Source: Escherichia phage SUT_E1520. Taken from it: a stretch of 64,000 bases of DNA. The notes beneath the pieces were generated by a model. It made no database searches and had not been told where the DNA came from. It saw nothing but the letters and a program-made list of their open reading frames with translations. The stretch lies in the sequence record OQ885479; one strand, given 5' to 3'. Below, in pieces: positions 9,195 to 38,169 of the stretch. Both the position numbers and the translations under genes were made by a program. Position 1 is the stretch's first letter; every line of letters begins with the position of its first letter.

Positions 9195-9353
9195 ATGGAA
9201 GATATTGATAAACTTGCAAAAATATTTGCTGAACTTTCTGATATAGAAGTCTCAGAGAACTCTAGAATAGATATGTTTATTGACCAATATAGAGAAGGAC
9301 TTATCAGTAAGAAAGATCTTCTAGATCTAACCTATAAAGAATTAACTAGTTAG
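9195..9353 (+). CDS. hypothetical small protein (52 aa)
   Basis: ATG after SD AAGG; below the track cutoff. Confidence 0.35.
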   Translation: MEDIDKLAKIFAELSDIEVSENSRIDMFIDQYREGLISKKDLLDLTYKELTS

Positions 9354-9423
9354 TTGGCAGAGTGGTTATGCACCTCCTTCATACGGAGCGACTACAGTGG
9401 TTCAAATCCACTACTAACTACCA
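9348..9423 (+). tRNA. tRNA with CAU anticodon (third CAU tRNA; Met or Ile2 type)
   Basis: Acceptor AGTTAGT/ACTAACT, loop TTCATAC, T-arm AGTGGTTCAAATCCACT, CCA. Confidence 0.6.
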
Positions 9424-9460
9424 TTAAAAGAGCTAGAGATAGCTAACTTTAGGAGCAGCT

Positions 9461-9655
9461 ATGTTAACAATTAAAATAATGTCAGCCAAGAATGGGGAAC
9501 AGATTCATACAGGCAAAAGTGTAAGCTTTAATCCTAGAAATAAAAGATTGGCTATAGTTGGAGTAGACCAAGCCATCTTTTTAAAAGAAGATGAAGTAGC
9601 ATATGTCATGAACCAAACTGGTAAGACAGTTTCCGTATACTATGGAAAAGTATAA
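9461..9655 (+). CDS. hypothetical protein
   Basis: ORF track; SD AGGAGCAGCT. Confidence 0.5.
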   Translation: MLTIKIMSAKNGEQIHTGKSVSFNPRNKRLAIVGVDQAIFLKEDEVAYVMNQTGKTVSVYYGKV

Positions 9656-9697
9656 AGAATAAATAGCTGAGCCAAATTCTAACATCGGGGAGATCTA

Positions 9698-10066
9698 ATG
9701 AAAGCATATCAAAATCTTAAATCTGGCGTAATTAACCTTGTTCATGAAAATCAGATTATTCAGCTATACTCCGACAACGGTGAACTTAAACAGAAAGTTC
9801 TAGTTGAAGATCTAGAAGGTATCACACCACAATTCGATCCCGAAGCCTTCCGTGAAGTCAAAGTGGAAGTCGCCCCTCAAATCGAAGGTGGTCAGCACCT
9901 AAATGTCAATGTGTTAAGCTGTGATCAGCTTTTGGATGCGCAGAAACATCCTGAAAAATATCCTCAGTTGACCATCCGTGTCTCTGGCTACGCTGTTCGA
10001 TTTAACGCACTGACTCGTGAACAACAGAACGACGTTATTAGTCGTACATTTACTCAGGCGATGTAA
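9698..10066 (+). CDS. autonomous glycyl-radical cofactor (GrcA/YfiD-like; pyruvate formate-lyase C-terminal domain homolog)
   Basis: C-terminus [31 protein letters not shown] matches the glycyl-radical motif RVSGY of PflB/GrcA. Confidence 0.8.
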
Positions 10067-10147
10067 TGGGGTTTGGGTACGATTTCTCCGAACTACGTGA
10101 GGTAGTCGAGCAAACTCCGTTTATCTCCCAAGTTTTAGGAGAAATGT

Positions 10148-10462
10148 GTGGATCGAGCATTAAGACGCCATCACCGGCAACGTGTGAAGAACAACCGCAA
10201 GAAGTATTGGACAGTCTTTCCACATGAAGAAAGCCCTAAGCGGTTAGGTATTATCACTACTACTCCTTGCATCTGTTCTTGTTGGATGTGCGGGAACCCT
10301 CGCAAATATTATAAGAATAGTAAAGCAGGCATGAAAATTTCGGAGATTAGGAAAATGGAAGCAATGATTATGGGCATCTCAAATGATGAATTTGATGGCT
10401 TTGTAGGATTCGGAGAAGGAATCAGCTCAGGCTATTCCGAAGATGAACGCCCCGATCTGTAA
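10148..10462 (+). CDS. hypothetical basic protein (GTG start per track; a competing 53-aa frame starts at 10066)
   Basis: ORF track; overlapping alternative frame leaves the true gene uncertain. Confidence 0.35.
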   Translation: MDRALRRHHRQRVKNNRKKYWTVFPHEESPKRLGIITTTPCICSCWMCGNPRKYYKNSKAGMKISEIRKMEAMIMGISNDEFDGFVGFGEGISSGYSEDERPDL

Positions 10463-14522: not shown

Positions 14523-15274
14523 TGTCAGTATTAGTCGGTTTACATGGTGAAGCTGGTTCGGGAAAAGATACCGTTGCAAAATTAATTATCGATTGGTGTA
14601 ATGACACGTATCCAACGTGTTTATCTCGTCGTTATAGTTTTGCTAAGCCCGTTTATGAACTTGCATCCGTAATCCTCGGTGTAACTCCAGAGTTTCTAGG
14701 AGAGCGCAGGGGAAAAGAGATTGACCAATGGTTTACGGTCACACAATCTCAGTTGGAACGAGCCAGGGATGTGTGGTTTAAGTACGGTATCGATAAGTTT
14801 GAAGACTTCTCGTACGTTTGGCCTATTTTTGAGGAAAAATATCTTAATCCTCAACAACTTATATCAGAGAATAAAGAAGACGGTCTTTATAGCTTATTTA
14901 TTTCTCCGAGAAAAATGTTACAGCTCGTAGGGACAGAGCTAGGAAGGCAGCTGGTGCATGAACGCATTTGGCTCATAATTCTGGAGCAATCCATCGCTAA
15001 AGACGACCCAGATGTCGCCGTAATAACAGATGTTAGATTCCCCAATGAAGGAGAGTTACTCAGAGAAACAAACCATTTAGATATGGATTCTTTGATAGTA
15101 AATGTAGTACCCGCTGAGCAGAAGTTCACTATTAAATCAGATCATCCATCTGAAAGTGGTATTCCTGCAAAATATATTACTCACGAATTAGTTAATAAAT
15201 TCGATGGTATCAATAACCTTAAACTAGAAGTTTATAACTTCTGTGACTTAGAGCTAGAACCACTAGTTGGATAA
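14522..15274 (+). CDS. dnk: P-loop nucleotide kinase, probable deoxynucleoside monophosphate kinase
   Basis: Walker A GEAGSGKDT at the N-terminus; 250 aa, matching my recollection of T5 dNMP kinase. Confidence 0.6.
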   Translation: MSVLVGLHGEAGSGKDTVAKLIIDWCNDTYPTCLSRRYSFAKPVYELASVILGVTPEFLGERRGKEIDQWFTVTQSQLERARDVWFKYGIDKFEDFSYVWPIFEEKYLNPQQLISENKEDGLYSLFISPRKMLQLVGTELGRQLVHERIWLIILEQSIAKDDPDVAVITDVRFPNEGELLRETNHLDMDSLIVNVVPAEQKFTIKSDHPSESGIPAKYITHELVNKFDGINNLKLEVYNFCDLELEPLVG

Positions 15275-15286
15275 TCAAGGATCACT

Positions 15287-15886
15287 ATGACTAATAAAAA
15301 AGAAGAAAAGACTAACCTGTTTCACTCCATTCGCCAATCTAATGAGTATACCTTTTTCTTTGATGAAGAATTAGGCCCGCCGGATGAATACCGTGATTTA
15401 TCAATGGTACTTATGCAAGCAAATGAGGACGACGAAATTAATCTGATGATTAATGGCCCTGGTGGTTATGTTGATACTGCTGCACAGTTATCTAACTTAA
15501 TTGCTAATTGCCGTGGAACAGTTATAGGACATCTGGTTGGTCCTAGTGCTTCTGCTTACTGCACAATTTTCCTATCCTGTCATGGGTGGGTAGTACATCC
15601 ACATGCTACGCTAATGGGACACACGTTCTCTGGAGGATTCTGTGAGAAGGGTCAAGAAATCAAGAAAGCCTATGAATCTTACAACAAGTTCGTAGAAGAT
15701 ATGATGCTAGATGTCTACTATCCGTTTTTCTCAATAGACGAAATCGATGAGATGGTAAAAGACAACAAAAATATCTATCTAGATAGCAAAGAAATCCATA
15801 AGCGTATTGAAATCTTGGCAAAATATCGATCTGAGCAGTATAATAAAGCCCAGTTACCTCAATCAGAGGAGCATAAAGAAGAGTAA
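15287..15886 (+). CDS. ClpP-like serine peptidase
   Basis: INGPGGYVDTA and GPSASAY motifs resemble the ClpP INSPGG / GQAASMG segments. Confidence 0.5.
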   Translation: MTNKKEEKTNLFHSIRQSNEYTFFFDEELGPPDEYRDLSMVLMQANEDDEINLMINGPGGYVDTAAQLSNLIANCRGTVIGHLVGPSASAYCTIFLSCHGWVVHPHATLMGHTFSGGFCEKGQEIKKAYESYNKFVEDMMLDVYYPFFSIDEIDEMVKDNKNIYLDSKEIHKRIEILAKYRSEQYNKAQLPQSEEHKEE

Positions 15887-27264: not shown

Positions 27265-27600
27265 AACTCTATGAGTTAATAGAATTAACCATTTAGAGTT
27301 GCCACACAGAAGGTGTGGTGGTTCAGTAATTTAAAATTACTAACTTGTAGCGGAGGATACGGAGCGACAGGACAAGTTAATAAGTAATTTAATATAAATT
27401 GCTAGAAACATCACGAGACCTTCTGGCGGGGGCAAAGCTCTATATGAGAACCCTGGGGGATCTTATATTTAAAATAAAAGTAAAACTTTTGACCACATAA
27501 TTTACATTCAAGATGATACACCTGTTGCCGCTCATCTGCTAGGATGGCACAACACTTTCCTAGAAACTCCAGAGTTCTCACGAAATACTCACTCTTTCTA

Positions 27601-27672
27601 GGGCGGTTCTCCTAAGTTTCTAGGAACATATACTAGGCGGTTTAATACAGGGCGGTTATGGGGAGGGCGGTT
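27601..27672 (+). repeat. four copies of GGGCGGTT interleaved with repeated TTTCTAGGAACATATA units
   Basis: Direct repeats seen in the sequence. Confidence 0.6.
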
Positions 27673-27715
27673 ATTTCTAGGAGACATTTTTTGAAAACAC
27701 ATTTCCAGAAATTAC

Positions 27716-28316
27716 TGTCGGATTTGCACATTGTGTTTCTAGAAATTTATGGTCGGATTTGCACAATTGCCTAAGTTTTTAGGAACATATAATCTCTTGA
27801 AAATGGCAGCATTATTTCGGGCCGAAGGCCCATGATTGCCTGAGTTTTTAGAGCCACAGAAACTTTCACTTGTCAAGCTATTTTGCCCCATTTAGCTAAT
27901 AAGATTTTACTTTATCTGCACTAATCTCAAATTAACCCAAATCTTCTCAACTCTTCCCCAAAATCCCCGCAAATCAGGTGCTACGCACCAAACATGCGCC
28001 CCTCTCGCAGTTCCCTCAAATTTTTCTCGATCTCTCAACTTCTCCCCAAACTCTTACAATCACACACTCTCCAATCGAAGTCACAAAAATCTTGTCGGAT
28101 TCGCACAAATAAACCCATGTCGGATTTGCACATATTCTAGTTAATTCCACAGGATTGATGCGCAGCATCGGATTGCTGGAGTTTTTAGGAAAATTCATTG
28201 TCGGATCCGCACATTATAAAAATTTTTCGGGTCGGATTTGCACACTACCAAAAATTGTCGGATTCGCACATACACGCCCACGCGTAATCCATGGGGGCAA
28301 ATGTCGGATTTGCACA
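27716..28316 (+). repeat. iteron-like array: eight copies of the 15-mer TGTCGGATYYGCACA
   Basis: Copies near 27716, 27751, 28093, 28118, 28199, 28230, 28256 and 28302, irregularly spaced. Confidence 0.7.
27880..28080 (+). other. G-depleted, C/A-rich tract of about 200 bp on the plus strand
   Basis: Strong strand compositional asymmetry, almost no G. Confidence 0.6.
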
Positions 28317-28349
28317 AAAGCGCAGGGCAATTGCCCTGCTTGCCTGAAT

Positions 28350-28545
28350 ACGAATGATAATGAGAATCATTCTCATTTAAAAAGCGGAATGTGAATGATA
28401 ATAATTCGCATTTAAGAATGGAAGTGAGAATTATTCAGGAAGTGAAACGATTCTCATTTAAAAAGTGGAATGATTATTAGTTAGATAGTGAAATGCGAAT
28501 GATACTGATTCGTATTTAAGAATGGAAGTGAGAAACACTATTATT
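28350..28545 (+). repeat. tandem degenerate repeats carrying a Fur-box-like 19-bp perfect palindrome AATGAGAATCATTCTCATT
   Basis: Palindrome at 28359-28377; repeated GAATGATAAT... and ATTCGCATTTAAGAATGGAAGTGAGAA units. Confidence 0.6.
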
Positions 28546-28660
28546 TAAGTTATCCACAGACTTATCAACAGCACGATTTGACTTGACAAAATCCTAGCCA
28601 TTTTGAGGCGTTATCAACAGACTTATCAACAGCTTATCCTACTGTATAAATATACAGTAT
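28541..28660 (+). repeat. left arm of an imperfect inverted repeat of about 110 bp, with DnaA box TTATCCACA and LexA-like box CTGTATAAATATACAG
   Basis: Reverse complement of 32386-32500 aligns along most of its length; DnaA box at 28550-28558, LexA-like box at 28642-28657. Confidence 0.6.
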
Positions 28661-28854
28661 TCCTATGCAGTGAATAATTCTAATATACAGCTAAAACGCT
28701 CTCAAACGCATTCTAACGCGTTTAATTTTGTTGGGGATACTAAAACACGGGTAAAATTGGAGGAGGCTTAGAAATTAGTTAGCGAGCTAACGATCACACA
28801 AGGCGACACGTAACACCCTAATCATTAGCAGGCTAACCATCGCGGGCGCGGTTA

Positions 28855-28873
28855 AATGAGAATCATTCTCATT
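28855..28873 (+). promoter_or_regulatory. second copy of the 19-bp palindrome AATGAGAATCATTCTCATT (Fur-box-like)
   Basis: Exact repeat of the palindrome at 28359-28377. Confidence 0.5.
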
Positions 28874-28915
28874 TGAAAATTGGGGGCACTCCCTGATAGT
28901 TGCGCCCCGTGATTA

Positions 28916-29110
28916 TTAGTCTGGTAGTCGATGCGTGATTTTTTCCTCCTCCCCGTAGGAATCCACCAAATACTGATAATAACCATCGTGATCATAAATC
29001 ACTTTATCATATTCGCCACGCTCGACCGCTTGCCGATTCTCCGGCGTATCTGGCACGTAAAAAACATCAACCATTGTACTGATCTTGGTTACAACTATTT
29101 TATTACTCAT
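28916..29110 (-). CDS. hypothetical protein (64 aa), last gene of the minus-strand operon
   Basis: ORF track; SD-like sequence upstream on the minus strand. Confidence 0.45.
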   Translation of the reverse strand: MSNKIVVTKISTMVDVFYVPDTPENRQAVERGEYDKVIYDHDGYYQYLVDSYGEEEKITHRLPD

Positions 29111-29211
29111 AATAACTCCCTAGTAAATATATTTTTGCCAATAGTGGCGAATGTTATCGCCACCAGCGGAATCATTAGCGGCCTTACTATTACCAACGAA
29201 AATATATAATC

Positions 29212-29571
29212 TCATTGCGCCACCTTTCGAAACGCTGTTTCAATACTATCCGCAGTGGATTGAATATATGCGCCTTTCATTATCAGGCGCTCGGTACATA
29301 CCTTGCGGAAAATATTAATAAAATCATCTTCATTTTCTGCAATTAATGCTTCACCCATAACCTGAACGTCACAAGATGCAAAGGTCAAAAATTGAAACGC
29401 TAGTTCACGGGCAACGACCGCATTAATTTTATAATGTGCCTTGCCCTCATAAATATTAATAACGCCCTTATAAGCTGGGGAAAGCTGATTTAAATAGTTT
29501 GCTAATAATGCTGGGCGGCAATTAGCAACAAAACGATTGCCTTCATAAATTATCATTTGCATAGCTCCCAA
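29212..29571 (-). CDS. hypothetical protein (TTG start per track; first ATG at 29562)
   Basis: ORF track. Confidence 0.5.
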   Translation of the reverse strand: MGAMQMIIYEGNRFVANCRPALLANYLNQLSPAYKGVINIYEGKAHYKINAVVARELAFQFLTFASCDVQVMGEALIAENEDDFINIFRKVCTERLIMKGAYIQSTADSIETAFRKVAQ

Positions 29572-29675
29572 ATAGTTCCGCCGATGATCATTAGCTGACT
29601 AATAATTATCAGAATAAAACCAATTGAAGGCAGGACGCCCCAAAAACGAAAAGCCGTTTTAATTTGCTGAATCAT
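29553..29675 (-). CDS. small membrane peptide (40 aa)
   Basis: Overlapping-coupled with its neighbours; single TM segment; below the track cutoff. Confidence 0.3.
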   Translation of the reverse strand: MIQQIKTAFRFWGVLPSIGFILIIISQLMIIGGTIWELCK

Positions 29676-29802
29676 TTGTTAGCCTCCCGATTAGATAGCC
29701 AGATAAAAGCATAAAGATCCCCAATGAAATGGGGTCATTTTTAAATAAGGTGGCGATAAAACCGCCAGCCATTGCAAGGATAATAACAATAACGCTTTTC
29801 AT
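29659..29802 (-). CDS. small membrane peptide (47 aa)
   Basis: ATGA overlap with the upstream stop; TM segment; below the track cutoff. Confidence 0.3.
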   Translation of the reverse strand: MKSVIVIILAMAGGFIATLFKNDPISLGIFMLLSGYLIGRLTNDSAN

Positions 29803-30011
29803 AGTACCCCACGAAACGCAGCGTAAAAGGTGGCAAAGTGTTTAACTGTTTCAGCTATCACGTTGCCGCGCTTATCAAATTTTTTCTCGGTAACACGAAA
29901 GGCATTTTTGTTACGTGCTACATATTCGATTTTACAATCTTCCCGCTCGAACGTGTTAACATCCACCAGCTTAAAGCCTTTCGAACGTGCAAGGGAAACG
30001 TTGCGGATCAT
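29799..30011 (-). CDS. hypothetical protein (70 aa)
   Basis: ORF track; SD AAGGAGA upstream. Confidence 0.45.
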   Translation of the reverse strand: MIRNVSLARSKGFKLVDVNTFEREDCKIEYVARNKNAFRVTEKKFDKRGNVIAETVKHFATFYAAFRGVL

Positions 30012-30013
30012 TT

Positions 30014-30163
30014 TTATTCTCCTTTACTAGTCATGCAGCCCAGCAGATAAGAAAACGCAGCAATGCCAGCGCCAATAATAACGGCGTGAACGCCAAAAGC
30101 TATTGCAAACAACGATAAAATAGCGCCCAAGATACCCGCCAGAATAGCTCGAAAAATAACCAT
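30014..30163 (-). CDS. small membrane peptide (49 aa)
   Basis: SD GGAGAAT upstream; TM segment; below the track cutoff. Confidence 0.3.
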   Translation of the reverse strand: MVIFRAILAGILGAILSLFAIAFGVHAVIIGAGIAAFSYLLGCMTSKGE

Positions 30164-30213
30164 TTTTTTTTATTCTCCTAGTCAGTGAGGGATATAATAT
30201 CCCCCGTTACTAA

Positions 30214-30444
30214 TTACATTAAAACAATTTTTGCAGCTTGTTTTTTAGTACAGTGTTCCGCTTTCAGCGTGTCCAGCAAAAAGCCCGCCGTTTGCTGATC
30301 GATTTTATCGGCGTTGTATAGTTCTTGGATGGTGTTATAAGTTTTAGCAATGCCGAACTCCTGCACCATTTCATGAATAATGGCGCGGTTAGATACCCAG
30401 CCTTGAGCGGTGAACAGATGAGTAGCAGAAGAGTAAGCAACCAT
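30214..30444 (-). CDS. hypothetical protein (76 aa)
   Basis: ORF track. Confidence 0.45.
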   Translation of the reverse strand: MVAYSSATHLFTAQGWVSNRAIIHEMVQEFGIAKTYNTIQELYNADKIDQQTAGFLLDTLKAEHCTKKQAAKIVLM

Positions 30445-30548
30445 TTTAAGCCTCCAAATTTTTGGGAAATTTTTAATCCACCGTTTTGGTGTAAAAGCAT
30501 TATAACAAAAAAGGCCACCATAAAAGGCGACCTTTACAAAACTTTACA

Positions 30549-31043
30549 TTAAACTACCTGTAAGGATTCAACATTGAAACATCGTTTTAATTCATCATGT
30601 AAAACAGCGTATTCCTCCCATCGGGTATTATCAGGAATATAAACAAGCTGTTTTAATCGATTTGCGTATATTACCGCTTTATTATCAATTATTTCGACGC
30701 CACCATATTTAATAATTAATTTCATGACGGAATTAATAGGATCGCCGCCGTTTACATATGTGCCGGATTTACTTAATTGATAATGATAAAGGCCAGCATA
30801 TACGTTTTCATTTTCATACCATTCGCCAGTTTCTTCGTCTTCATAGCCATCGCTACCAAAACGAGAAGCATTATCAATAGCCATTTCATGAGCGAAAGCG
30901 TCCAGATCCGTACCAGCAGGAACAAAGTATTCCTCGGTATTCCCTTCCCCGCAATAGCCAGTATGACAATCGACTAAAATGATCATATCATGTTTAGCCG
31001 TGCTCACTTCCCCTAGCGAGAAGCCGTATTTTTCCTCAGCCAT
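30549..31043 (-). CDS. hypothetical protein (164 aa)
   Basis: ORF track; SD AGGAGG upstream. Confidence 0.55.
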   Translation of the reverse strand: MAEEKYGFSLGEVSTAKHDMIILVDCHTGYCGEGNTEEYFVPAGTDLDAFAHEMAIDNASRFGSDGYEDEETGEWYENENVYAGLYHYQLSKSGTYVNGGDPINSVMKLIIKYGGVEIIDNKAVIYANRLKQLVYIPDNTRWEEYAVLHDELKRCFNVESLQVV

Positions 31044-31108
31044 TTATTAGCCTCCTATTAATTAACAAGGGAGTAGTAAAGCGGGGAAATAATCCCCGCT
31101 AAATATTA

Positions 31109-32119
31109 TTACTCGCTTTCGGTGTTAGTGGTAAAAGTAGAAATATCAATACCTTTCACCATTTCATCAATCATTTCAGCGATGTTAAAACTTTGCACCA
31201 TTTCCAGCATTGCCGCTTCCATAGCCGCCCCCGCTACCGCTTTCGCCTTTTGGTTAGTCGGTGCGTACTGGTCAACCGCTACACTCAGCAGGTTAGCGAT
31301 CACTACACGACCAATAGGTGTATCGATATAACCTTTGATCATGAATGGTGCTTTTTTAGCCGCTACTTTCGTAATTTGAGTTAATGCAATTTTACCCGCC
31401 TCCAGTTTTGCAGCATTTACAACAGCGGATTTATTGGCGGCAACGATGTTAGCAATCTTGGTCATGGTGTTTTTTCCTTTGTTTTCAGTAGTTTGAGTGT
31501 TAACGCTTTGAGTGTTAGAATTTACAGCATGGTTTTCTACGCTGTCAATAATCTGATCTTCATCTTTCCAGAAAGAAAAACCAGCGCTTTCTATATCCCC
31601 ATCATAAATATATGGGTATAGCTCCCGTGGTAACAAAAAATTACCGTCGCCATCAAAAGCCATTATACCGGTATATTGAGATCCGTCGTTATCCGGCTTA
31701 TGCCATCCAGCGGGTAAATACTTCCAGATAACATCTAAAAATCCCTCAATGCTAGAAAGTCCATTTATCAGATCAAGTCCAATAAGCTCAAAACTATTTA
31801 TATTAAATGATTGACGGCCTGAATTGCTATGATACGCAACAATATTATTACCCTGCGCAACAATAAAATCGGTATCCGGCCCCGCTCCCCTGCCTGTAAA
31901 GATATGGCAATCCCGATTATATAAAACTAGCGTTGCCCCTTGTCTATATAAGGGTAGAAAACTATCCATATCATAAGCGTCATAATCATCAAAAAAGTTT
32001 TGATGAATAGTTTCAATCTTGTTAATAAAATGTTTAATGCTGGTTGACTTGCTACCGTCTAGCAGGTTGCGCAATGCACCCTTTAATACGGTGGCATTAT
32101 CAGGTTTATACAGCCTCAT
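31109..32119 (-). CDS. hypothetical protein (336 aa), first gene of the minus-strand operon
   Basis: ORF track; SD GAGGAGG upstream. Confidence 0.6.
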   Translation of the reverse strand: MRLYKPDNATVLKGALRNLLDGSKSTSIKHFINKIETIHQNFFDDYDAYDMDSFLPLYRQGATLVLYNRDCHIFTGRGAGPDTDFIVAQGNNIVAYHSNSGRQSFNINSFELIGLDLINGLSSIEGFLDVIWKYLPAGWHKPDNDGSQYTGIMAFDGDGNFLLPRELYPYIYDGDIESAGFSFWKDEDQIIDSVENHAVNSNTQSVNTQTTENKGKNTMTKIANIVAANKSAVVNAAKLEAGKIALTQITKVAAKKAPFMIKGYIDTPIGRVVIANLLSVAVDQYAPTNQKAKAVAGAAMEAAMLEMVQSFNIAEMIDEMVKGIDISTFTTNTESE

Positions 32120-32385
32120 TTGTTAGGCCTCCTCGTTAATCGGTGAGTGAATGATAAAGGTAAATTTCTAGCATAGGCAAATATTATTTTACCTTTTTAT
32201 TTTCCTTGCCTAGCGCCTATTTTTATGATAACCGCGCAGCGGTGCAATAAAGAGCAAACCACGGCGAAGCCACCAGGCCGACGCATTGAGGCTTTACTTT
32301 AATATTACCTTACAGCGTTTAGCTCGTTAGAATGCGATTTAAGCCGCTTAAAATTGATTGCAGTTGTTAACACTACCTTTTTACC

Positions 32386-32500
32386 CTGTATAAATATACA
32401 GTAGGATAACCTGTGGATAAGTCTGTGTAAAAGTCCTTATATCGCCGCCTATCGTGTCAAGTCAAAAAGTGCTGTGGATAACTTTGTGTATAACTTAAAT
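32386..32500 (+). repeat. right arm of the inverted repeat, with LexA-like box and two TGTGGATAA DnaA boxes
   Basis: LexA-like box at 32386-32401; DnaA boxes at 32412-32420 and 32473-32481. Confidence 0.6.
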
Positions 32501-32830
32501 GATAGTGGTTCTCACTTAGCTAGATGATTTCTTATAGTTATTATTTCTCATTAATTTATATGTATATTATATATCATGAAATAGTTAGTTGGCTAATGAG
32601 ATTTTTCCGTGATTAATAGTCTGCTAATAATTCAGGTCGTTACAATCCACCAGCATGATTATCATTCTAGCAATTATTAGTCTGCTATCTTTCCGATGCA
32701 TACTAACAAATAAAAGTCAATTAATTTATTTCATAAAATAAGTAGTTATCCACTGGAAAATAAAAGTCAAGTGGATAACTAGGAAAATTTCATTTTTGCT
32801 TTTGGGGATAAGTTATCAACAAGGCTAGAA
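32500..32830 (+). other. AT-rich region with further DnaA-box-like 9-mers; origin-like or host-factor binding region
   Basis: TTATCCACT near 32746, GTGGATAAC near 32771, TTATCAACA near 32813; very AT-rich 32520-32720. Confidence 0.4.
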
Positions 32831-33225
32831 TGCGCCTAAAACGCTCCAGAACGCAATAAAGTTTTTAGCCATCCCATCATAAGGGGATAAGCCGTTTATC
32901 GTTACCACGAGCTTTTTAGATTTTGTCAAGTAGGGCAAAGCAAATATAAATGAAAAAATTACTTGCCTATTTGCTTTATTTTGTGGTATTCGCGCGCCCG
33001 TTTCTTTTAATTTTAGGCCGTCGCCGCACGGTGTCCGGTGAGTTTTACCTTTACATTTCTTTACAAAAATAAGGTTGCGCCATTTTCGGGAATCCCCTAT
33101 TATTTATCTCGTAGGGCGGCAATGACGAACTACACGGCGGGAAGTTTACCGCCACGCTCTTTAAAAATTGGGTACATCTTAAAGCCTATCGGCGGTAAAC
33201 TTATTCATTATAAGGAATCGACGAT

Positions 33226-33429
33226 ATGAAACAAACGCTTTTGATCACTGGCAAGCCTATTAAGGCACTAGATAGCAAAACAAAAAATTTGTTGACAGTA
33301 GCTCAAAGATCAGTAAGATATAGATTCACGCAGTACAAGAAAGGTCGCCAGCAAGGTCTGGAAATGATCTGGCGAAATATTATGATTGACCTAAAAGAAA
33401 ATCATAAAAAATTGCAAAAAATTGTTTGA
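33226..33429 (+). CDS. hypothetical basic protein (67 aa), flanked by a 25-bp inverted repeat
   Basis: ORF track; inverted repeat arms at 33169-33193 and 33437-33461. Confidence 0.3.
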   Translation: MKQTLLITGKPIKALDSKTKNLLTVAQRSVRYRFTQYKKGRQQGLEMIWRNIMIDLKENHKKLQKIV

Positions 33430-33659
33430 CAACCTAGCCGATAGGTTTTAAGATGTACCCAGTTCGATAAGAGCGATAACTTGATAAAATTTGACGGTCG
33501 GTGCTTACCATAATGCATCCCGCCCCCTAACGGGATATAGCGGCCTACGTGGAGTTCTTTAAAATTGATTATATTGGCGAGCGGATTGTTACTTATTACC
33601 TGCTGTTACTTTCTAGCAGGTAATGCGGAACAATCCCCAAATAACTAGGAGTTTATATT

Positions 33660-33911
33660 ATGCAAAACGTTATTACCGCGCCGAAAGTTGGTCAATCCGT
33701 CTTCATTCCTTTCGTTACTAAAACGGATGAATTAACCGGAAAGGCCGAACGTATTAAAGGTGCGGCGCTTATGCCGTTCGATACAATCGACGCGGTATAC
33801 GCTGAAAATGAACGTAGTAACAACGGCAAGCCCGTTTTTAGCGTTCGCGTTAAATCCGGCGATGTTGTAAAGGTTGTTCAACGCAACGAAAAATGGGAAG
33901 CTGTATTGTAA
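33660..33911 (+). CDS. pre-early protein (hypothetical)
   Basis: ORF track; SD TAGGAG; 10-bp-stem hairpin upstream at 33595-33624. Confidence 0.5.
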   Translation: MQNVITAPKVGQSVFIPFVTKTDELTGKAERIKGAALMPFDTIDAVYAENERSNNGKPVFSVRVKSGDVVKVVQRNEKWEAVL

Positions 33912-34007
33912 ATTAGTGTTAACTTTATATCCCCTTATTTCAGGGGGATATAACGATTAACATTAAGTTAATCTAATCCCTTAAATTAAACTAATAGGAG
34001 TTACATC

Positions 34008-34415
34008 ATGACTAACGCTAAAACCGCAAAATTCGCATGGAATGAAGAAAACACTCAGAAAGCTGTTTCCATGTATCAACAGTTAATTAATGAAAACGGT
34101 TTAGATTTCGCAAATAGCGACGGTTTAAAAGAGATTGCAAAAGCAGTGGGCGCGGCTTCTCCCGTATCCGTTCGGTCAAAATTGACCAGCGCAAAAGCAT
34201 ATCAAAAAAGCGATAAGCCTCGCAAAGTTGGCGGCGGTAGTTCAATCCGCAAAGCTCATTATGTACGCGTTATTGCAAAACACGCTATCGATTCCGGCAT
34301 TATCAAAGATGCCGATGATCTGGCAAGCCTTGAAAGTGCAAAACTTGAAACGCTGGACGCAGTAGCGCAATTGTTAGGCGTTGCCGATGAAGTAAAACAA
34401 GCCGCAGGCGAATAA
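34008..34415 (+). CDS. A2-like pre-early protein (putative DNA-binding)
   Basis: 135 aa, immediately upstream of A1; assignment by position and size only. Confidence 0.4.
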   Translation: MTNAKTAKFAWNEENTQKAVSMYQQLINENGLDFANSDGLKEIAKAVGAASPVSVRSKLTSAKAYQKSDKPRKVGGGSSIRKAHYVRVIAKHAIDSGIIKDADDLASLESAKLETLDAVAQLLGVADEVKQAAGE

Positions 34416-34507
34416 TAGTTATACCTTGCCCCCTTTTTTAGTGAGGGGGCAATAATATAACTGTTTAGCGATAGTTATTTTCTTCCCTTAAATCAGGAGT
34501 TTTTAAA

Positions 34508-34705
34508 ATGATCTTTTATCCTACTGAATCATTAATTCTAGGCTTGTTTATTATGGCGGCCTCGTTATTGTTCGCTTATTTTCAAAATGATTTAGATTCG
34601 TATTATTTTAAACGTAAATCTAAGTTAGCAAAGCGTTTAGGTCTTATTTGTTTTATTGCCGCCGTTGCTTGTGGTGTTAGTTCTAGCCTTATGCCTTTAA
34701 ATTAA
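34508..34705 (+). CDS. small membrane protein
   Basis: ORF track; two hydrophobic segments. Confidence 0.45.
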   Translation: MIFYPTESLILGLFIMAASLLFAYFQNDLDSYYFKRKSKLAKRLGLICFIAAVACGVSSSLMPLN

Positions 34706-34795
34706 TGTTGCAAATTATAACGCCTATTATTCGAGGCGTTATATTTGGCAATATTGCCGTTATTAATCTAATCCCTTTAATGGAGTTTTATTATC

Positions 34796-36460
34796 ATGAT
34801 TATTTCCGCAGAAAAACAAACCGTTATCCTGAAAATGGCCGCTGACTTTAATTTCTATGGTAAACGTCTGCGCGCTACTAAACTGGAAGTCTGCGACGAT
34901 ATATCAAAAGCGGTCTACGATACAACGAAACACTCCACCGCCATTTGTGATTGGTTGGAAGCAAATAAACCAGCGAAACCGAAAGCGGCGAAAGTAGCAA
35001 AAGCCATTAAAAACGACGAGCGCCCAGAAGCGGCGGGGGTTGTTTCTAGCACGGTTGAACAGTGGGAAGTAAAACAAGGCAAACGCTTTATTATTACATC
35101 GATTCAGAATAATACTTTCCCGCATAAAAACTTTTTGGCCTCACTTGAACAATATGCCAAATTTATCGGCGCTGATTTGCTCGTTTCTAAGTATATTTAT
35201 AATAAAAACGGTTTTCAAAATGGGGAAGGTGCGGATGGAATCAAATATGATTCCGCGTTTGATAAATATATTTGCAGCAAAAACGTGTTTTTAAATAACC
35301 GCCGTTTCGCTTTCATGGCTGAAATTAATGTTTTGCCAACCGCAGATTATCCGCTTTCTGGATTCGCAGAAACTGCAACGGCTTTAAATATTGAAGGTCT
35401 GGCAATTGGTCACGCTAAAATCACCGCTGAAAGTGTGCCAGCTTTAAAAGGTGAAGTAGTGCGCCGTATGTATTCAACCGGAACGGCAACGCTCAAAAAC
35501 TACATTCAGCAGAAAGCAGGACAAAAGGCCGAGGCGCTGCATAACTTCGGTGCGCTTATTGTTGAGTTCGACGACGACGGGGAATTTTTTGTACGCCAGC
35601 TTGAAACGATGGACGAAAGCGGGGTGTTTTATGATCTGAACGTTTGCGCTACTCCTGCCGGATGCTATGAAACATCGGGGCATGTTTTAGGCTTGCAGTA
35701 TGGCGATATTCACGCCGAAAAATTAGATGATGATTGTGCCGTTGCGTCATGGGCTGGCGAGAATAGTTTGCTTGATATTCTTAAACCAAAATATCAGCTT
35801 ATTCATGACGTGCATGATTTTACATCGCGCAATCATCATAACCGTGCATCCGGTGTATTCCTAGCGAAACAGTATGCCGCCGGACGTGATAAAGTTCTGG
35901 ATGATCTTATCGATACGGGGCGCGTGCTGGAATCAATGGAACGTGATTTTAGTCAAACAATCATCGTAGAATCGAATCACGATTTGGCGCTATCCCGCTG
36001 GCTTGATGATCGTAATGCTAACATTAAAGACGATCCCGCCAACGCCGAACTATATCACCGCCTAAATGCTGCAATTTACGCGGCAATCGGTGAGCATGAC
36101 GATACTTTCAACGTGCTAGATTATGCGTTGCGCAAGGTTGCAGGTTGTGAGTTTAACGCCATTTTCCTAACCACTGACCAATCTTTCAAGATTGCAGGTA
36201 TTGAATGCGGCGTACACGGTCACAACGGCATTAACGGCAGCCGTGGCAACCCGAAACAATTTAAGAAATTGGGCAAGTTAAACACGGGGCATACGCATAC
36301 CGCCAGCATTTACGGCGGCGTATACACCGCTGGCGTAGCTGGTAGTCTGGATATGGGTTACAACGTTGGCGCGTCAAGCTGGACGCAGACGCATTTAATT
36401 ACCTATGCAAACGGTCAGCGCACTTTGATTGACTTTAAAAACGGTAAATTCTTTGCGTAA
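34796..36460 (+). CDS. A1: A1-like pre-early protein, calcineurin/Mre11-like metallophosphoesterase (probable DNase)
   Basis: 554 aa; motifs GDIHAE, HDFTSRNHHN and GHTHTAS. Confidence 0.7.
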   Translation: MIISAEKQTVILKMAADFNFYGKRLRATKLEVCDDISKAVYDTTKHSTAICDWLEANKPAKPKAAKVAKAIKNDERPEAAGVVSSTVEQWEVKQGKRFIITSIQNNTFPHKNFLASLEQYAKFIGADLLVSKYIYNKNGFQNGEGADGIKYDSAFDKYICSKNVFLNNRRFAFMAEINVLPTADYPLSGFAETATALNIEGLAIGHAKITAESVPALKGEVVRRMYSTGTATLKNYIQQKAGQKAEALHNFGALIVEFDDDGEFFVRQLETMDESGVFYDLNVCATPAGCYETSGHVLGLQYGDIHAEKLDDDCAVASWAGENSLLDILKPKYQLIHDVHDFTSRNHHNRASGVFLAKQYAAGRDKVLDDLIDTGRVLESMERDFSQTIIVESNHDLALSRWLDDRNANIKDDPANAELYHRLNAAIYAAIGEHDDTFNVLDYALRKVAGCEFNAIFLTTDQSFKIAGIECGVHGHNGINGSRGNPKQFKKLGKLNTGHTHTASIYGGVYTAGVAGSLDMGYNVGASSWTQTHLITYANGQRTLIDFKNGKFFA

Positions 36461-36515
36461 TTAAATTATTTCCCTAGCGGCTTGAAATATAGCCGCTATT
36501 TCAGGAGTCACAAAA

Positions 36516-36773
36516 ATGAAAGTTACATTACCCAAAACACTGGACGAAAAAGTATTCATTTCACCGGATGAAATGGAATCTGATAAAGTTTACAGCTTCG
36601 GGCCTATCCTAGCCGCTAAAACTAATACTGATGGCGTTATTTCCGTAGATTACCGTGATAATGATGTTGTTCCTTTTGATGACGATAGCGCTTTTTATGA
36701 GTGGCTAAGTGATAATAATCTACCCGTAAACGGTGAATTAACGCCGTACCAGATGCAGATTATTATCAAATAA
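36516..36773 (+). CDS. pre-early protein (hypothetical)
   Basis: ORF track. Confidence 0.5.
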   Translation: MKVTLPKTLDEKVFISPDEMESDKVYSFGPILAAKTNTDGVISVDYRDNDVVPFDDDSAFYEWLSDNNLPVNGELTPYQMQIIIK

Positions 36774-36811
36774 TTTAAATCCATTATTAAACTAATTGGG
36801 GTTTTATAAAT

Positions 36812-37204
36812 ATGAAAAAGCAAAATATTCCATTCGATCGCGCTCAGTCTTCCATTGTTCTGGTTTATTCTAATGGTGAACGTTATCACGTCGAGGCGTG
36901 GCACGTTATTGATGAATTGTTAGATTTCAATGATGCGATGCAGGTTACAACATTTGCATATATGCAAGGCAAACTAACAAGCCATATTAAAGCAAAAGGC
37001 GTTTATATTGACACGGTGAAACAAGAAACGATTATCATCGACGCAGTAAAATCCGGCCTAGCCTTTGCAGTTGTCGCGCCTTGCCTCGCTTGCCTTGATG
37101 ATCAGCTAGCGAGCGCAAAGGTATATACCTGCGCGGGTATTCGTTCCCATGTATCAGGTGAGGATATTAGTTTTATTGCTGATGCGTTGGCTTATGGTCT
37201 TTAA
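36812..37204 (+). CDS. pre-early protein (hypothetical)
   Basis: ORF track. Confidence 0.5.
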   Translation: MKKQNIPFDRAQSSIVLVYSNGERYHVEAWHVIDELLDFNDAMQVTTFAYMQGKLTSHIKAKGVYIDTVKQETIIIDAVKSGLAFAVVAPCLACLDDQLASAKVYTCAGIRSHVSGEDISFIADALAYGL

Positions 37205-37283
37205 TAGTTGATTTATTATTACCCGCTTATAAATAGCGGGTAATGCTGGATAAACTAAATCCCTTTAATGGAGAACGTAACAA

Positions 37284-38018
37284 ATGAATAAAGCTATTAT
37301 GAATATTTCCCGTAATTTCCCGCATATTTCCCGCGTCATGATTTGGGATTTAGACGGCACTATCATTAATTCTTTCCATCGTGTAGCGCCTTGCTTTGAT
37401 AGTGAGGGCAATTTAGATTTAAATAAGTATAAAAATGAAGCCTGCAAACATCATTTAATAATGCAAGATACTTTATTGCCATTGGTTGAATATATGCGCC
37501 AATGTATGAATGATGCAAATACTTTAAACATTATTTGCACCGCTCGACTAATGAGCAAGTCGGACTATTATTATTTGCGTAAACAAGGGTTGCGCGGTCG
37601 TGGTGATAGTAATATCCGTGTATTTTCCCGCGATACACTACACAAATATTTTGAAGCTGATAAAGTTAGCGAGATATACCACAGCAAAGACGCCATTTAT
37701 AAATCGTATTATTTTGAATTATTTAAACAATTATATCCAAACGCTGACTTTACAATGATTGACGATCATAAAGGCGTGCTATCAGCGGCGGCATCATACG
37801 GATTTAAAACGCTGGACGCGCAAGCCATTAACGATATTCTATCAATCGGCGTTGCATTGATAGGTGAAACCTTTATCGATGAATCTCTCGATGATGATAA
37901 TGATTATCAGTTCCTAGCTGATCGTTTGAAATTATGTTGGGAAAGTATGACCGAGGAAGAACGCGCAGAATATAGTTGCAGCCCGCAACAATATATTGAG
38001 AAATTAAAAGTTGCGTAA
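37284..38018 (+). CDS. dmp: 5-prime-deoxyribonucleotidase, HAD-superfamily phosphatase
   Basis: 244 aa; HAD motif I DLDGT near the N-terminus and a later DD motif. Confidence 0.7.
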   Translation: MNKAIMNISRNFPHISRVMIWDLDGTIINSFHRVAPCFDSEGNLDLNKYKNEACKHHLIMQDTLLPLVEYMRQCMNDANTLNIICTARLMSKSDYYYLRKQGLRGRGDSNIRVFSRDTLHKYFEADKVSEIYHSKDAIYKSYYFELFKQLYPNADFTMIDDHKGVLSAAASYGFKTLDAQAINDILSIGVALIGETFIDESLDDDNDYQFLADRLKLCWESMTEEERAEYSCSPQQYIEKLKVA

Positions 38019-38032
38019 TAATTAAAGTTGAA

Positions 38033-38069
38033 ATAGTCACGGTGTGTAATGATAACATGCCGTGACTAT
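38033..38069 (+). terminator. stem-loop after dmp (terminator-like)
   Basis: ATAGTCACGG...CCGTGACTAT hairpin. Confidence 0.45.
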
Positions 38070-38082
38070 TAGCTTGCTAAGT

Positions 38083-38100
38083 ACCGGGCGGTAATGAGAC
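38083..38100 (+). promoter_or_regulatory. third copy (one mismatch) of the Fur-box-like palindrome
   Basis: AATGAGACTCATTCTCAT between dmp and the small-membrane-protein operon. Confidence 0.45.
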
Positions 38101-38169
38101 TCATTCTCATCTGGGGAGCCACTGGACACACCTCCATGTGTAATCTTATGAAATTTGACAAAAGTCGAA

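Follow-up and report, generated by a model that had tools for sequence, protein, structure and literature searches.

The window, by which we mean the whole 64-kb stretch of sequence record OQ885479 (Escherichia phage SUT_E1520), is, judged by its sequence, from a T5-like phage: the 1.2 kb around the palindromes described below are 100% identical to Escherichia phage SUT_E420, and the same 1.2 kb match hundreds of Tequintavirus and Epseptimavirus genomes at 80-95% identity. The window is oriented in reverse relative to T5, and the palindrome region corresponds to T5 coordinates ~9260-10400, as seen in an alignment against AY587007 9099-10399 and its feature table. The terminal repeat, 10.3 kb long, is represented by a single collapsed copy (27851-38127) that is delimited by the T5 alignment and by the contig ends of isolates (loci L044/L062 and L028, which lead to window positions 27851 and 38127). 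Homology to T5 coordinate 1 and a contig end place the left genome end at ~38127/38128. The inner border of the terminal repeat carries the element discussed here, and its repeat array is ~500 bp from the other terminal-repeat boundary, i.e. the right genome end.

A scan of the window finds the 19-bp palindrome AATGAGAATCATTCTCATT exactly at 28359-28377 and 28855-28873, as first annotated; with up to three mismatches allowed there are nine matches in the window (both strands counted), against 0.07 expected from shuffled sequences. A third copy, previously placed at 38083-38100 with one mismatch, is in fact located at 38093-38111 (AATGAGACTCATTCTCATC) and has two. Five related 25-mers (repeat family D1) start at 28359, 28394, 28440, 28498 and 28855, and the units in the field are interspersed direct repeats with spacings of 35, 46 and 58 nt. 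Of the two exact copies only copy 1 lies inside the repeat field; copy 2 is found ~320 bp away, past the DnaA and LexA boxes and immediately behind a terminator hairpin. The repeats, taken for tandem ones in the initial annotation, are interspersed, and Tandem Repeats Finder detects no more in the field than a single 46-nt array of two copies. Exact GATAAT is not enriched in the window, where it occurs 71 times (62.6 expected), and there are only two occurrences in the region; the recurring hexamer is the looser GnnAAT / ATTCnC. No Rfam families and no tRNA genes were found in the region.

By alignment with T5, the palindromes are the known "direct repeat C / palindromes E-I" set of T5 Repeat Region 3. 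The unit at 28356-28374 (GATAATGAGAATCATTCTC), which overlaps exact palindrome copy 1, is T5 direct repeat C copy 4 / palindrome I (T5 9607-9637), and the units to the right of 28359-28377 are copies 3-1, with palindromes G and E. These comprise GTGAATGATAATAATTCGCATTTAA at 28391-28415, the "type B" unit AAGTGAAACGATTCTCATTTAAAAA at 28440-28464 (plus strand), in which the right half and flank alone are conserved, and GCGAATGATACTGATTCGTATTTAAGAAT at 28495-28523, which adjoins the DnaA boxes; all of them belong to the 25-mer family above. Two 67-nt direct repeats (28364-28534, plus strand; family D5), the DRE1 and DRE2 of Davison's description, carry direct repeat C units and are 82% identical at a spacing of 104 nt. 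Palindrome D, IRD'/IRC', direct repeat C/DRE, palindrome J, direct repeat D and direct repeat A follow each other in one order in T5 and in this phage. The two differ in that the T5 palindrome contains one mismatch and is perfect here, and in that this phage has two additional copies, which follow the terminator and lie near the left end, respectively, and are lacking or degenerate in T5. Palindrome copy 2, although missing from T5 itself, is kept in nine of 11 T5-like loci.

The element is thus already catalogued, which the initial annotation had not recognised, and the new lead is its resemblance to binding sites of the host iron repressor Fur. Repeat Region 3, which lies at the inner end of the terminal repeat, has been put forward as the candidate signal for the injection stop (Davison 2020 preprint), with a calculated shear point at ~9618 in T5 coordinates, and this point coincides with the strongest Fur-type box. 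The pause of T5 DNA entry at 8% of the genome, and its restart, have been a puzzle since the 1960s, that is, for 60 years; recent papers call the mechanism of stop and restart poorly understood, and Repeat Region 3 is described as experimentally unexplored in papers of 2023 and 2026. Davison's text mentions neither LexA nor Fur. In the literature searched, a reader protein has never been assigned to direct repeat C, no paper links Fur to the T5 first-step region, and the LexA boxes of T5-like terminal repeats are not mentioned.

Beside the array lie two pairs of DnaA boxes (TTATCCACA and three copies of TTATCAACA; 28550-28631, plus strand), recovered in a repeat search, which are the IRC'/IRD' of Davison's description of T5. 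Next to them lies a near-consensus LexA (SOS) box, TACTGTATAAATATACAGTA, at 28640-28659, which is T5 palindrome D; it agrees with TACTG(TA)5CAGTA at 19 of 20 positions, and the number of such boxes expected by chance is 0. A Rho-independent terminator (28882-28908, minus strand; fold of -16.5 kcal/mol followed by CAAUUUUC) ends the pre-early operon that runs leftward in window orientation and thus reads toward the repeat region, and its T-tract abuts palindrome copy 2. In this phage two copies lie directly behind terminator hairpins at the ends of two pre-early operons, a placement that suggests a barrier role. On the other side of the array, the GC-rich hairpin GCAGGGCAATTGCCCTGC (28322-28339; T5 palindrome J) adjoins the annotated 7.9% major nick, and six iteron-like copies of GTCGGATTYGCACA (28094-28316, plus strand; family D3) constitute T5 direct repeat D, which in My1 and Sugarland, too, adjoins the direct repeat C array.

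Several further observations concern these neighbours. A second LexA box, CCCTGTATAAATATACAGTA, is located at 32384-32403 in Repeat Region 2, and each of the two LexA boxes (28640-28659 and 32384-32403) adjoins a DnaA-box pair. CTGT-N8-ACAG boxes are present in the non-coding regions of the terminal repeat in every Demerecviridae phage examined, Vibrio phages included. The exact DnaA-box doublet TTATCCACAGACTTATCAA(CA) also occurs in many viral contigs that are otherwise unlike T5 (28 IMG/VR loci, L021-L063), and seems to be a double DnaA box, with 3 bp between the two boxes, that recurs in unrelated elements. Direct repeat D (TGTCGGATTTGCACA, 6-9 copies) always adjoins the direct repeat C array (window 28094-28316; L066 980-1128; L067 2368-2947), and in T5 it straddles the terminal-repeat boundary. 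A promoter-like match, TTGAGA-17-TAGAAT (10/12), is found at 28705-28677 on the minus strand, ~17 nt upstream of the LexA box; its -35 element is not conserved in T5. On the same strand, the palindrome J hairpin with its T-run (28339-28322) scores as a terminator. A transcript of ~340 nt over the DnaA boxes and the Fur-like units is therewith possible as far as the sequence goes.

Fur recognition was assessed with two matrices. The first, a palindromic 19-bp matrix of 13.8 bits, was derived from 20 Fur-regulated promoters of E. coli MG1655, whose operators agree with the consensus GATAATGATAATCATTATC at 11-17 of 19 positions and score from 5 to 22.2 bits when left out one at a time, with fhuF at the top (22.2). 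The best site in the 64 kb is 28356-28374 (GATAATGAGAATCATTCTC), which at 17/19 and 22.2 bits is level with the best host operator; the probability of such a score is ~3e-8 per position, 0.002 such sites are expected by chance in 64 kb, and none of 200 Markov simulations reached it. The second matrix was built from nine published iron boxes, with the consensus and the box nearest to the phage site left out, and again puts 28356-28374 at the top of the window (22.8 bits). The resemblance to a Fur box noted in the initial annotation, and with it the proposal that these sites could bind Fur, therefore gain support from two independent matrices, the check suggested there, which is passed decisively, and in addition from the use of the same 19-mer as an iron box in bacteria (see below).

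The strongest box is not isolated. The 541-bp locus has six sites of at least 12 bits where 0.14 are expected, a count attained in none of 20,000 simulations. The unit at 28391-28415 has two registers, offset by 6 nt, of 14.2 and 12.9 bits, exact palindrome copy 2 with its Fur-like registers (28852-28876) scores 15.1 and 14.3 bits, and 28362-28380, which overlaps the top box at an offset of 6 nt, scores 13.2 bits. Such pairs of registers 6 nt apart (28356/28362, 28391/28397 and 28852/28858) are also typical of natural Fur operators, and the pattern recurs in related phages. The unit at 28495-28523 reaches 10.9 bits, and its orthologs in other T5-like phages 14-19 bits; apart from the top box, the phage units match the Fur consensus at 13-15 of 19 positions. 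The unit layout, [GnnAAT][GAnAAT]-n-[ATTCnC][ATTTAA], corresponds to the hexamer / 7-1-7 scheme of E. coli Fur operators: TGAGAAT-C-ATTCTCA is the Fur 7-1-7 core TGATAAT-C-ATTATCA with one symmetric change, and the phage departs from the Fur consensus at low-information positions only. The column-wise correlation between the phage motif and the Fur matrix is 0.67, compared with 0.09 +/- 0.13 when columns are permuted. The published iron box GATAATGAGAATCATTATT, which we take to be that of iucA, is identical to 28356-28374 at 17 of 19 positions and has 16 consecutive bases in common with the phage units; words of 15 and 13 nt are shared between the phage units and the feoA and ryhB operators, respectively. 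In sequence, then, the phage units are operator-grade Fur boxes, and Fur would almost certainly bind them in vitro.

They differ from E. coli Fur operators in their setting. The latter lie over promoters, whereas in this virulent phage 4-7 candidate units lie in a non-coding zone of convergent transcription, and the array includes an additional conserved flank, CATTTAArAA, and units of which only one half is retained. No overlap with a Fur-regulated promoter was detected: the sites lie between converging transcription units, promoter matches there are weak (9/12), and no gene starts nearby.

That the likeness to Fur is incidental, an AT-rich repeat that happens to resemble one of several hundred host regulator motifs, must be weighed here, and we consider it very improbable. 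A correction for multiple testing is due if a match to any host motif would have attracted attention, and a site of comparable score in dmp (see below) merely follows the codons for DDNDYQ. On the other hand, the best site has a probability of ~3e-8 per position and is accompanied by several independent variants at 18-23 bits. False positives are few in 460 kb of control DNA: in 243 kb of E. coli DNA from outside the training promoters matrix 1 never reaches 16 bits, and 219 kb of unrelated viral DNA contain a single site at or above 17.5 bits. In addition, the 19-mer is found in iron-gene contexts in bacteria.

The last point derives from a search for the exact 19-mer in one genome per bacterial species. 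It occurs at at least 120 bacterial loci, mostly in beta- and gamma-proteobacteria, against a rough expectation from base composition of ~4-30. Among the matches listed, 39 of 120 have iron genes within 1.5 kb, namely genes for TonB-dependent receptors (22), FeoAB (9), Fur (5) or siderophore ABC components, and the rate of iron genes near the 19-mer is six times that at more than 2.5 kb in the same loci. The ORFs downstream of a random 19 of the matches listed comprise ~11 iron or metal uptake genes, a count that includes two FbpA-like binding proteins and an ABC-3 permease added by Pfam. Given this association with iron genes, the phage palindrome is a sequence that bacteria use as an iron box.

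Several Fur-like sites are kept within the same 600 bp in all genuine T5-like loci from IMG/VR; the 28 unrelated elements among the loci fetched by a DnaA-box anchor served as controls only. Variants in T5-like phages score as high as or higher than the sites of the window, e.g. GATAATAAGAATCATTATC with 22.8 bits and GCGAATGATAATCATTCTC with 20.1 bits. Distant relatives were found via the A1 protein, which is 33-73% identical in Sugarland, My1, Proteus phage 1 and Aeromonas TS3. In the equivalent non-coding region the Klebsiella phage Sugarland possesses three tandem 35-nt units (top score 18.2 bits), the Pectobacterium phage My1 a top Fur-like site of 19.7 bits, Proteus phage 1 three copies of GCAAGTGATTATCATTACT, and the Aeromonas phage TS3 four Fur-like sites. 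LexA boxes, DnaA boxes and the Fur-like array co-occur across the phage family, and the window, Sugarland, Proteus phage 1 and one of the two TS3 regions share one order, from the Fur-like array through the DnaA boxes to the LexA box. In the Vibrio relatives the DnaA and LexA boxes are retained, but strong Fur-like sites are missing from that region.

The receptor of the phage is irrelevant to the presence of these sites. The initial annotation had reasoned that T5-like phages enter through FhuA, a Fur-regulated receptor, and block it with Llp, so that phage sites might bind or titrate Fur. Phage DT57C, however, uses BtuB and not FhuA as its receptor, and its sites are equally strong (20.1 bits twice, 18.0, 16.9 and 16.2 bits), and the Klebsiella, Pectobacterium, Proteus and Aeromonas phages also have such sites; there is therefore no tie to FhuA. 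The titration of Fur suggested there fares no better: the sites lie away from promoters in a convergent, reportedly untranscribed zone, and T5 breaks down host DNA within minutes of infection, so that derepression of host genes would be of little use. Titration of Fur to derepress FhuA is therefore unlikely.

A logo of 60 distinct units reveals a further property of the repeats, namely their asymmetry: the right half, together with the flank CATTTAArAA that lies outside the Fur box, is best conserved, and about half of the 60 units are of type B, retaining the right half and flank only, with Fur scores below 10 bits. Consequently, Fur alone does not account for all of the constraint. The main rival to a Fur reading starts from here: a phage-encoded protein, the alternative already named in the initial annotation, might read the units, with a specificity that resembles that of Fur by chance. 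Candidates would be the pre-early DNA-binding protein A2 (with A1), a protein packaged in the virion, or the small terminase, and the array would be the phage's own site for injection restart or for packaging recognition, like the cosB repeats of lambda. The asymmetric unit, its strongly conserved flank and the half-only units speak for such a reader; the array is ~500 bp from the right genome end, a related copy is found 18-36 nt from the left end within the deeply conserved GGCGGTAAnGAGACT, as befits end recognition, and A2 falls into a PHROG family labelled "DNA binding protein", though neither Pfam nor PDB yielded a relative of A2. However, the exact palindrome is a widespread iron box and the Fur match equals the best of the host, so that a coincidence is unlikely; the conserved neighbours are sites of host factors, and the motif has remained unchanged while phage proteins have diverged to ~33% identity. 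A Fur homologue encoded by the phage itself is rejected, since a tblastn search of the window was negative. Classical accounts have it that no synthesis of phage proteins is required for the first-step stop, which also counts against a phage-encoded reader. Taken together, we regard such a reader as possible, if somewhat unlikely; Fur and a phage protein could also compete for the same DNA.

The copy near the left terminus deserves separate treatment. It spans 38086-38111 (GGCGGTAATGAGACTCATTCTCATC), scores 17.5 bits in the register 38090-38108 and is 18-36 nt from the inferred left end. Its left half is conserved in T5, My1, and Proteus and Vibrio phages; T5, Sugarland, Proteus phage 1 and Vibrio phage D124 do not conserve the right half, which is the Fur-like one. 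The conserved part belongs to a separate terminal motif, GGCGGTAAnGAGACT, which is common to T5-like phages of E. coli, Pectobacterium, Proteus and Vibrio and is situated ~25-45 nt from the left terminus, just beyond the dmp terminator (window 38086-38101; L066 13440-13463; L069 ~15525-15545; L071 7872-7895; L070 ~15055-15075). For this reason we rejected the view of the terminus-proximal copy as a plain member of the array. By its conservation pattern it is probably first of all an end-recognition element, and GGCGGTAAnGAGACT may be a terminase or end-recognition site.

Close by, a Fur-like sequence, GATGATGATAATGATTATCAGTTCC, lies at 37890-37914 inside dmp (37284-38018, plus strand) and scores 19.3 and 17.8 bits; its counterpart in Sugarland reaches 25.0 bits, and the dmp site has 19 consecutive bases in common with the E. 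coli sufA operator. The site encodes DDDNDYQF and vanishes wherever the DDNDYQ peptide motif vanishes. Tied as it is to these codons, it is probably a by-product of the coding sequence.

It has also to be considered whether the AT-rich repeats act as DNA rather than as protein-binding sites, either as the unwinding element of an iteron-type origin or as bent or cruciform DNA on which passage through the tail or channel stalls. DnaA boxes, AT-rich repeats and 6-9 iterons together resemble plasmid theta origins, and these components of an iteron origin are present in the sequence, where no initiator was identified; the origins of T5, however, have been mapped near the genome centre (Davison). 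At first look the iteron-like arrangement also brought a plasmid origin to mind, yet a plasmid collection gave no match and this candidate was dropped. As regards structure, the 206-nt stretch folds better as single-stranded DNA than shuffled sequences do (z = -4.3), and secondary structure has been proposed earlier for the injection-stop signal. Yet the hairpins of single palindromes are weak (-3.6 to -6.4 kcal/mol), for which reason we rejected a hairpin or cruciform as the main explanation; moreover, conservation resides at the bases read by Fur and not in pairing potential, and changes in the arms are often uncompensated. We therefore think it improbable that the repeats work through DNA structure.

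The explanation that we favour, and to which we give about even chances on the sequence evidence, is that host Fur sits on these boxes within a complex of host proteins at the FST/SST border. Fur is an abundant protein of the cell. Once an iron-replete cell has received the first 8% of the genome, Fur-Fe2+ dimers would settle on 3-7 sites over ~180 bp and on one site behind the operon terminator, DnaA on the four adjoining boxes and LexA on the adjoining SOS box, and the three would together make up the complex by which this border is marked. The role of this complex would probably be architectural, that of a barrier or anchor, with no regulation of host or phage promoters: it might halt RNA polymerase reading through from the converging pre-early operon, or it might hold the DNA until A1 and A2 act. 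We infer that a structural role at the FST/SST border fits the positions of the sites better than titration of Fur does. That the phage has been selected for Fur binding appears to us an evenly balanced proposition because the match is of operator grade, bacteria use the sequence as an iron box, the sites are constant across diverged phages, and DnaA and LexA sites are their neighbours. The identity of the element, the quality of its boxes, their conservation and their neighbours are observed, and binding of Fur in vivo and the effect of such binding are inferred.

Several facts speak against a role of Fur. The sites lie away from promoters, the units are asymmetric and those of type B stay below 10 bits, and the Vibrio relatives are without strong Fur-like sites in this region. 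A phage whose receptor is repressed by Fur will mostly encounter cells starved of iron, in which Fur is largely off the DNA. Furthermore, a cytoplasmic protein on DNA that has already entered leaves the stop of transfer unexplained by itself. A more far-reaching version of the Fur explanation, which we consider unlikely, is that the injection-stop region would be a landing pad for Fur, DnaA and LexA whose occupancy gates the two-step transfer and thereby couples the second step to iron, replication and DNA damage. The block might, for example, be lifted when A1-triggered breakdown of host DNA induces LexA cleavage, or when A2 displaces Fur, or by both.

If Fur is the reader, this would be an unusual use of the host iron repressor, which would serve a virulent phage structurally or as a gate instead of regulating promoters. 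Sites of host iron repressors are otherwise found on phages as the Fur box of stx1 in Shiga-toxin phages and as the DtxR operator of tox in corynephage beta. These resemble the present case in that a phage genome carries a site, here a candidate site, for a host iron repressor; they are single sites over the promoter of a cargo gene in temperate phages, in contrast to an array at an untranscribed border in a lytic phage. The cosB site of lambda combines repeated terminase sites with a site for host IHF, and, like the T5-like array, brings short repeats and sites for host factors together in non-coding DNA close to an end of the genome. The T5-like array, however, lies ~500 bp from the end, its host motifs are those of Fur, DnaA and LexA and not of IHF, and terminase is not known to bind its units. 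Operator-grade Fur boxes in a family-wide module with DnaA and LexA boxes turn a thicket of repeats into specific and cheap experiments.

A minor observation concerns the annotation of this region in related phages. In the MM-1 record PV577657 (L001 3400-5560, approximately window 27300-29300) a string of "hypothetical proteins" of 30-50 codons extends across the non-coding repeats, which is likely over-annotation.
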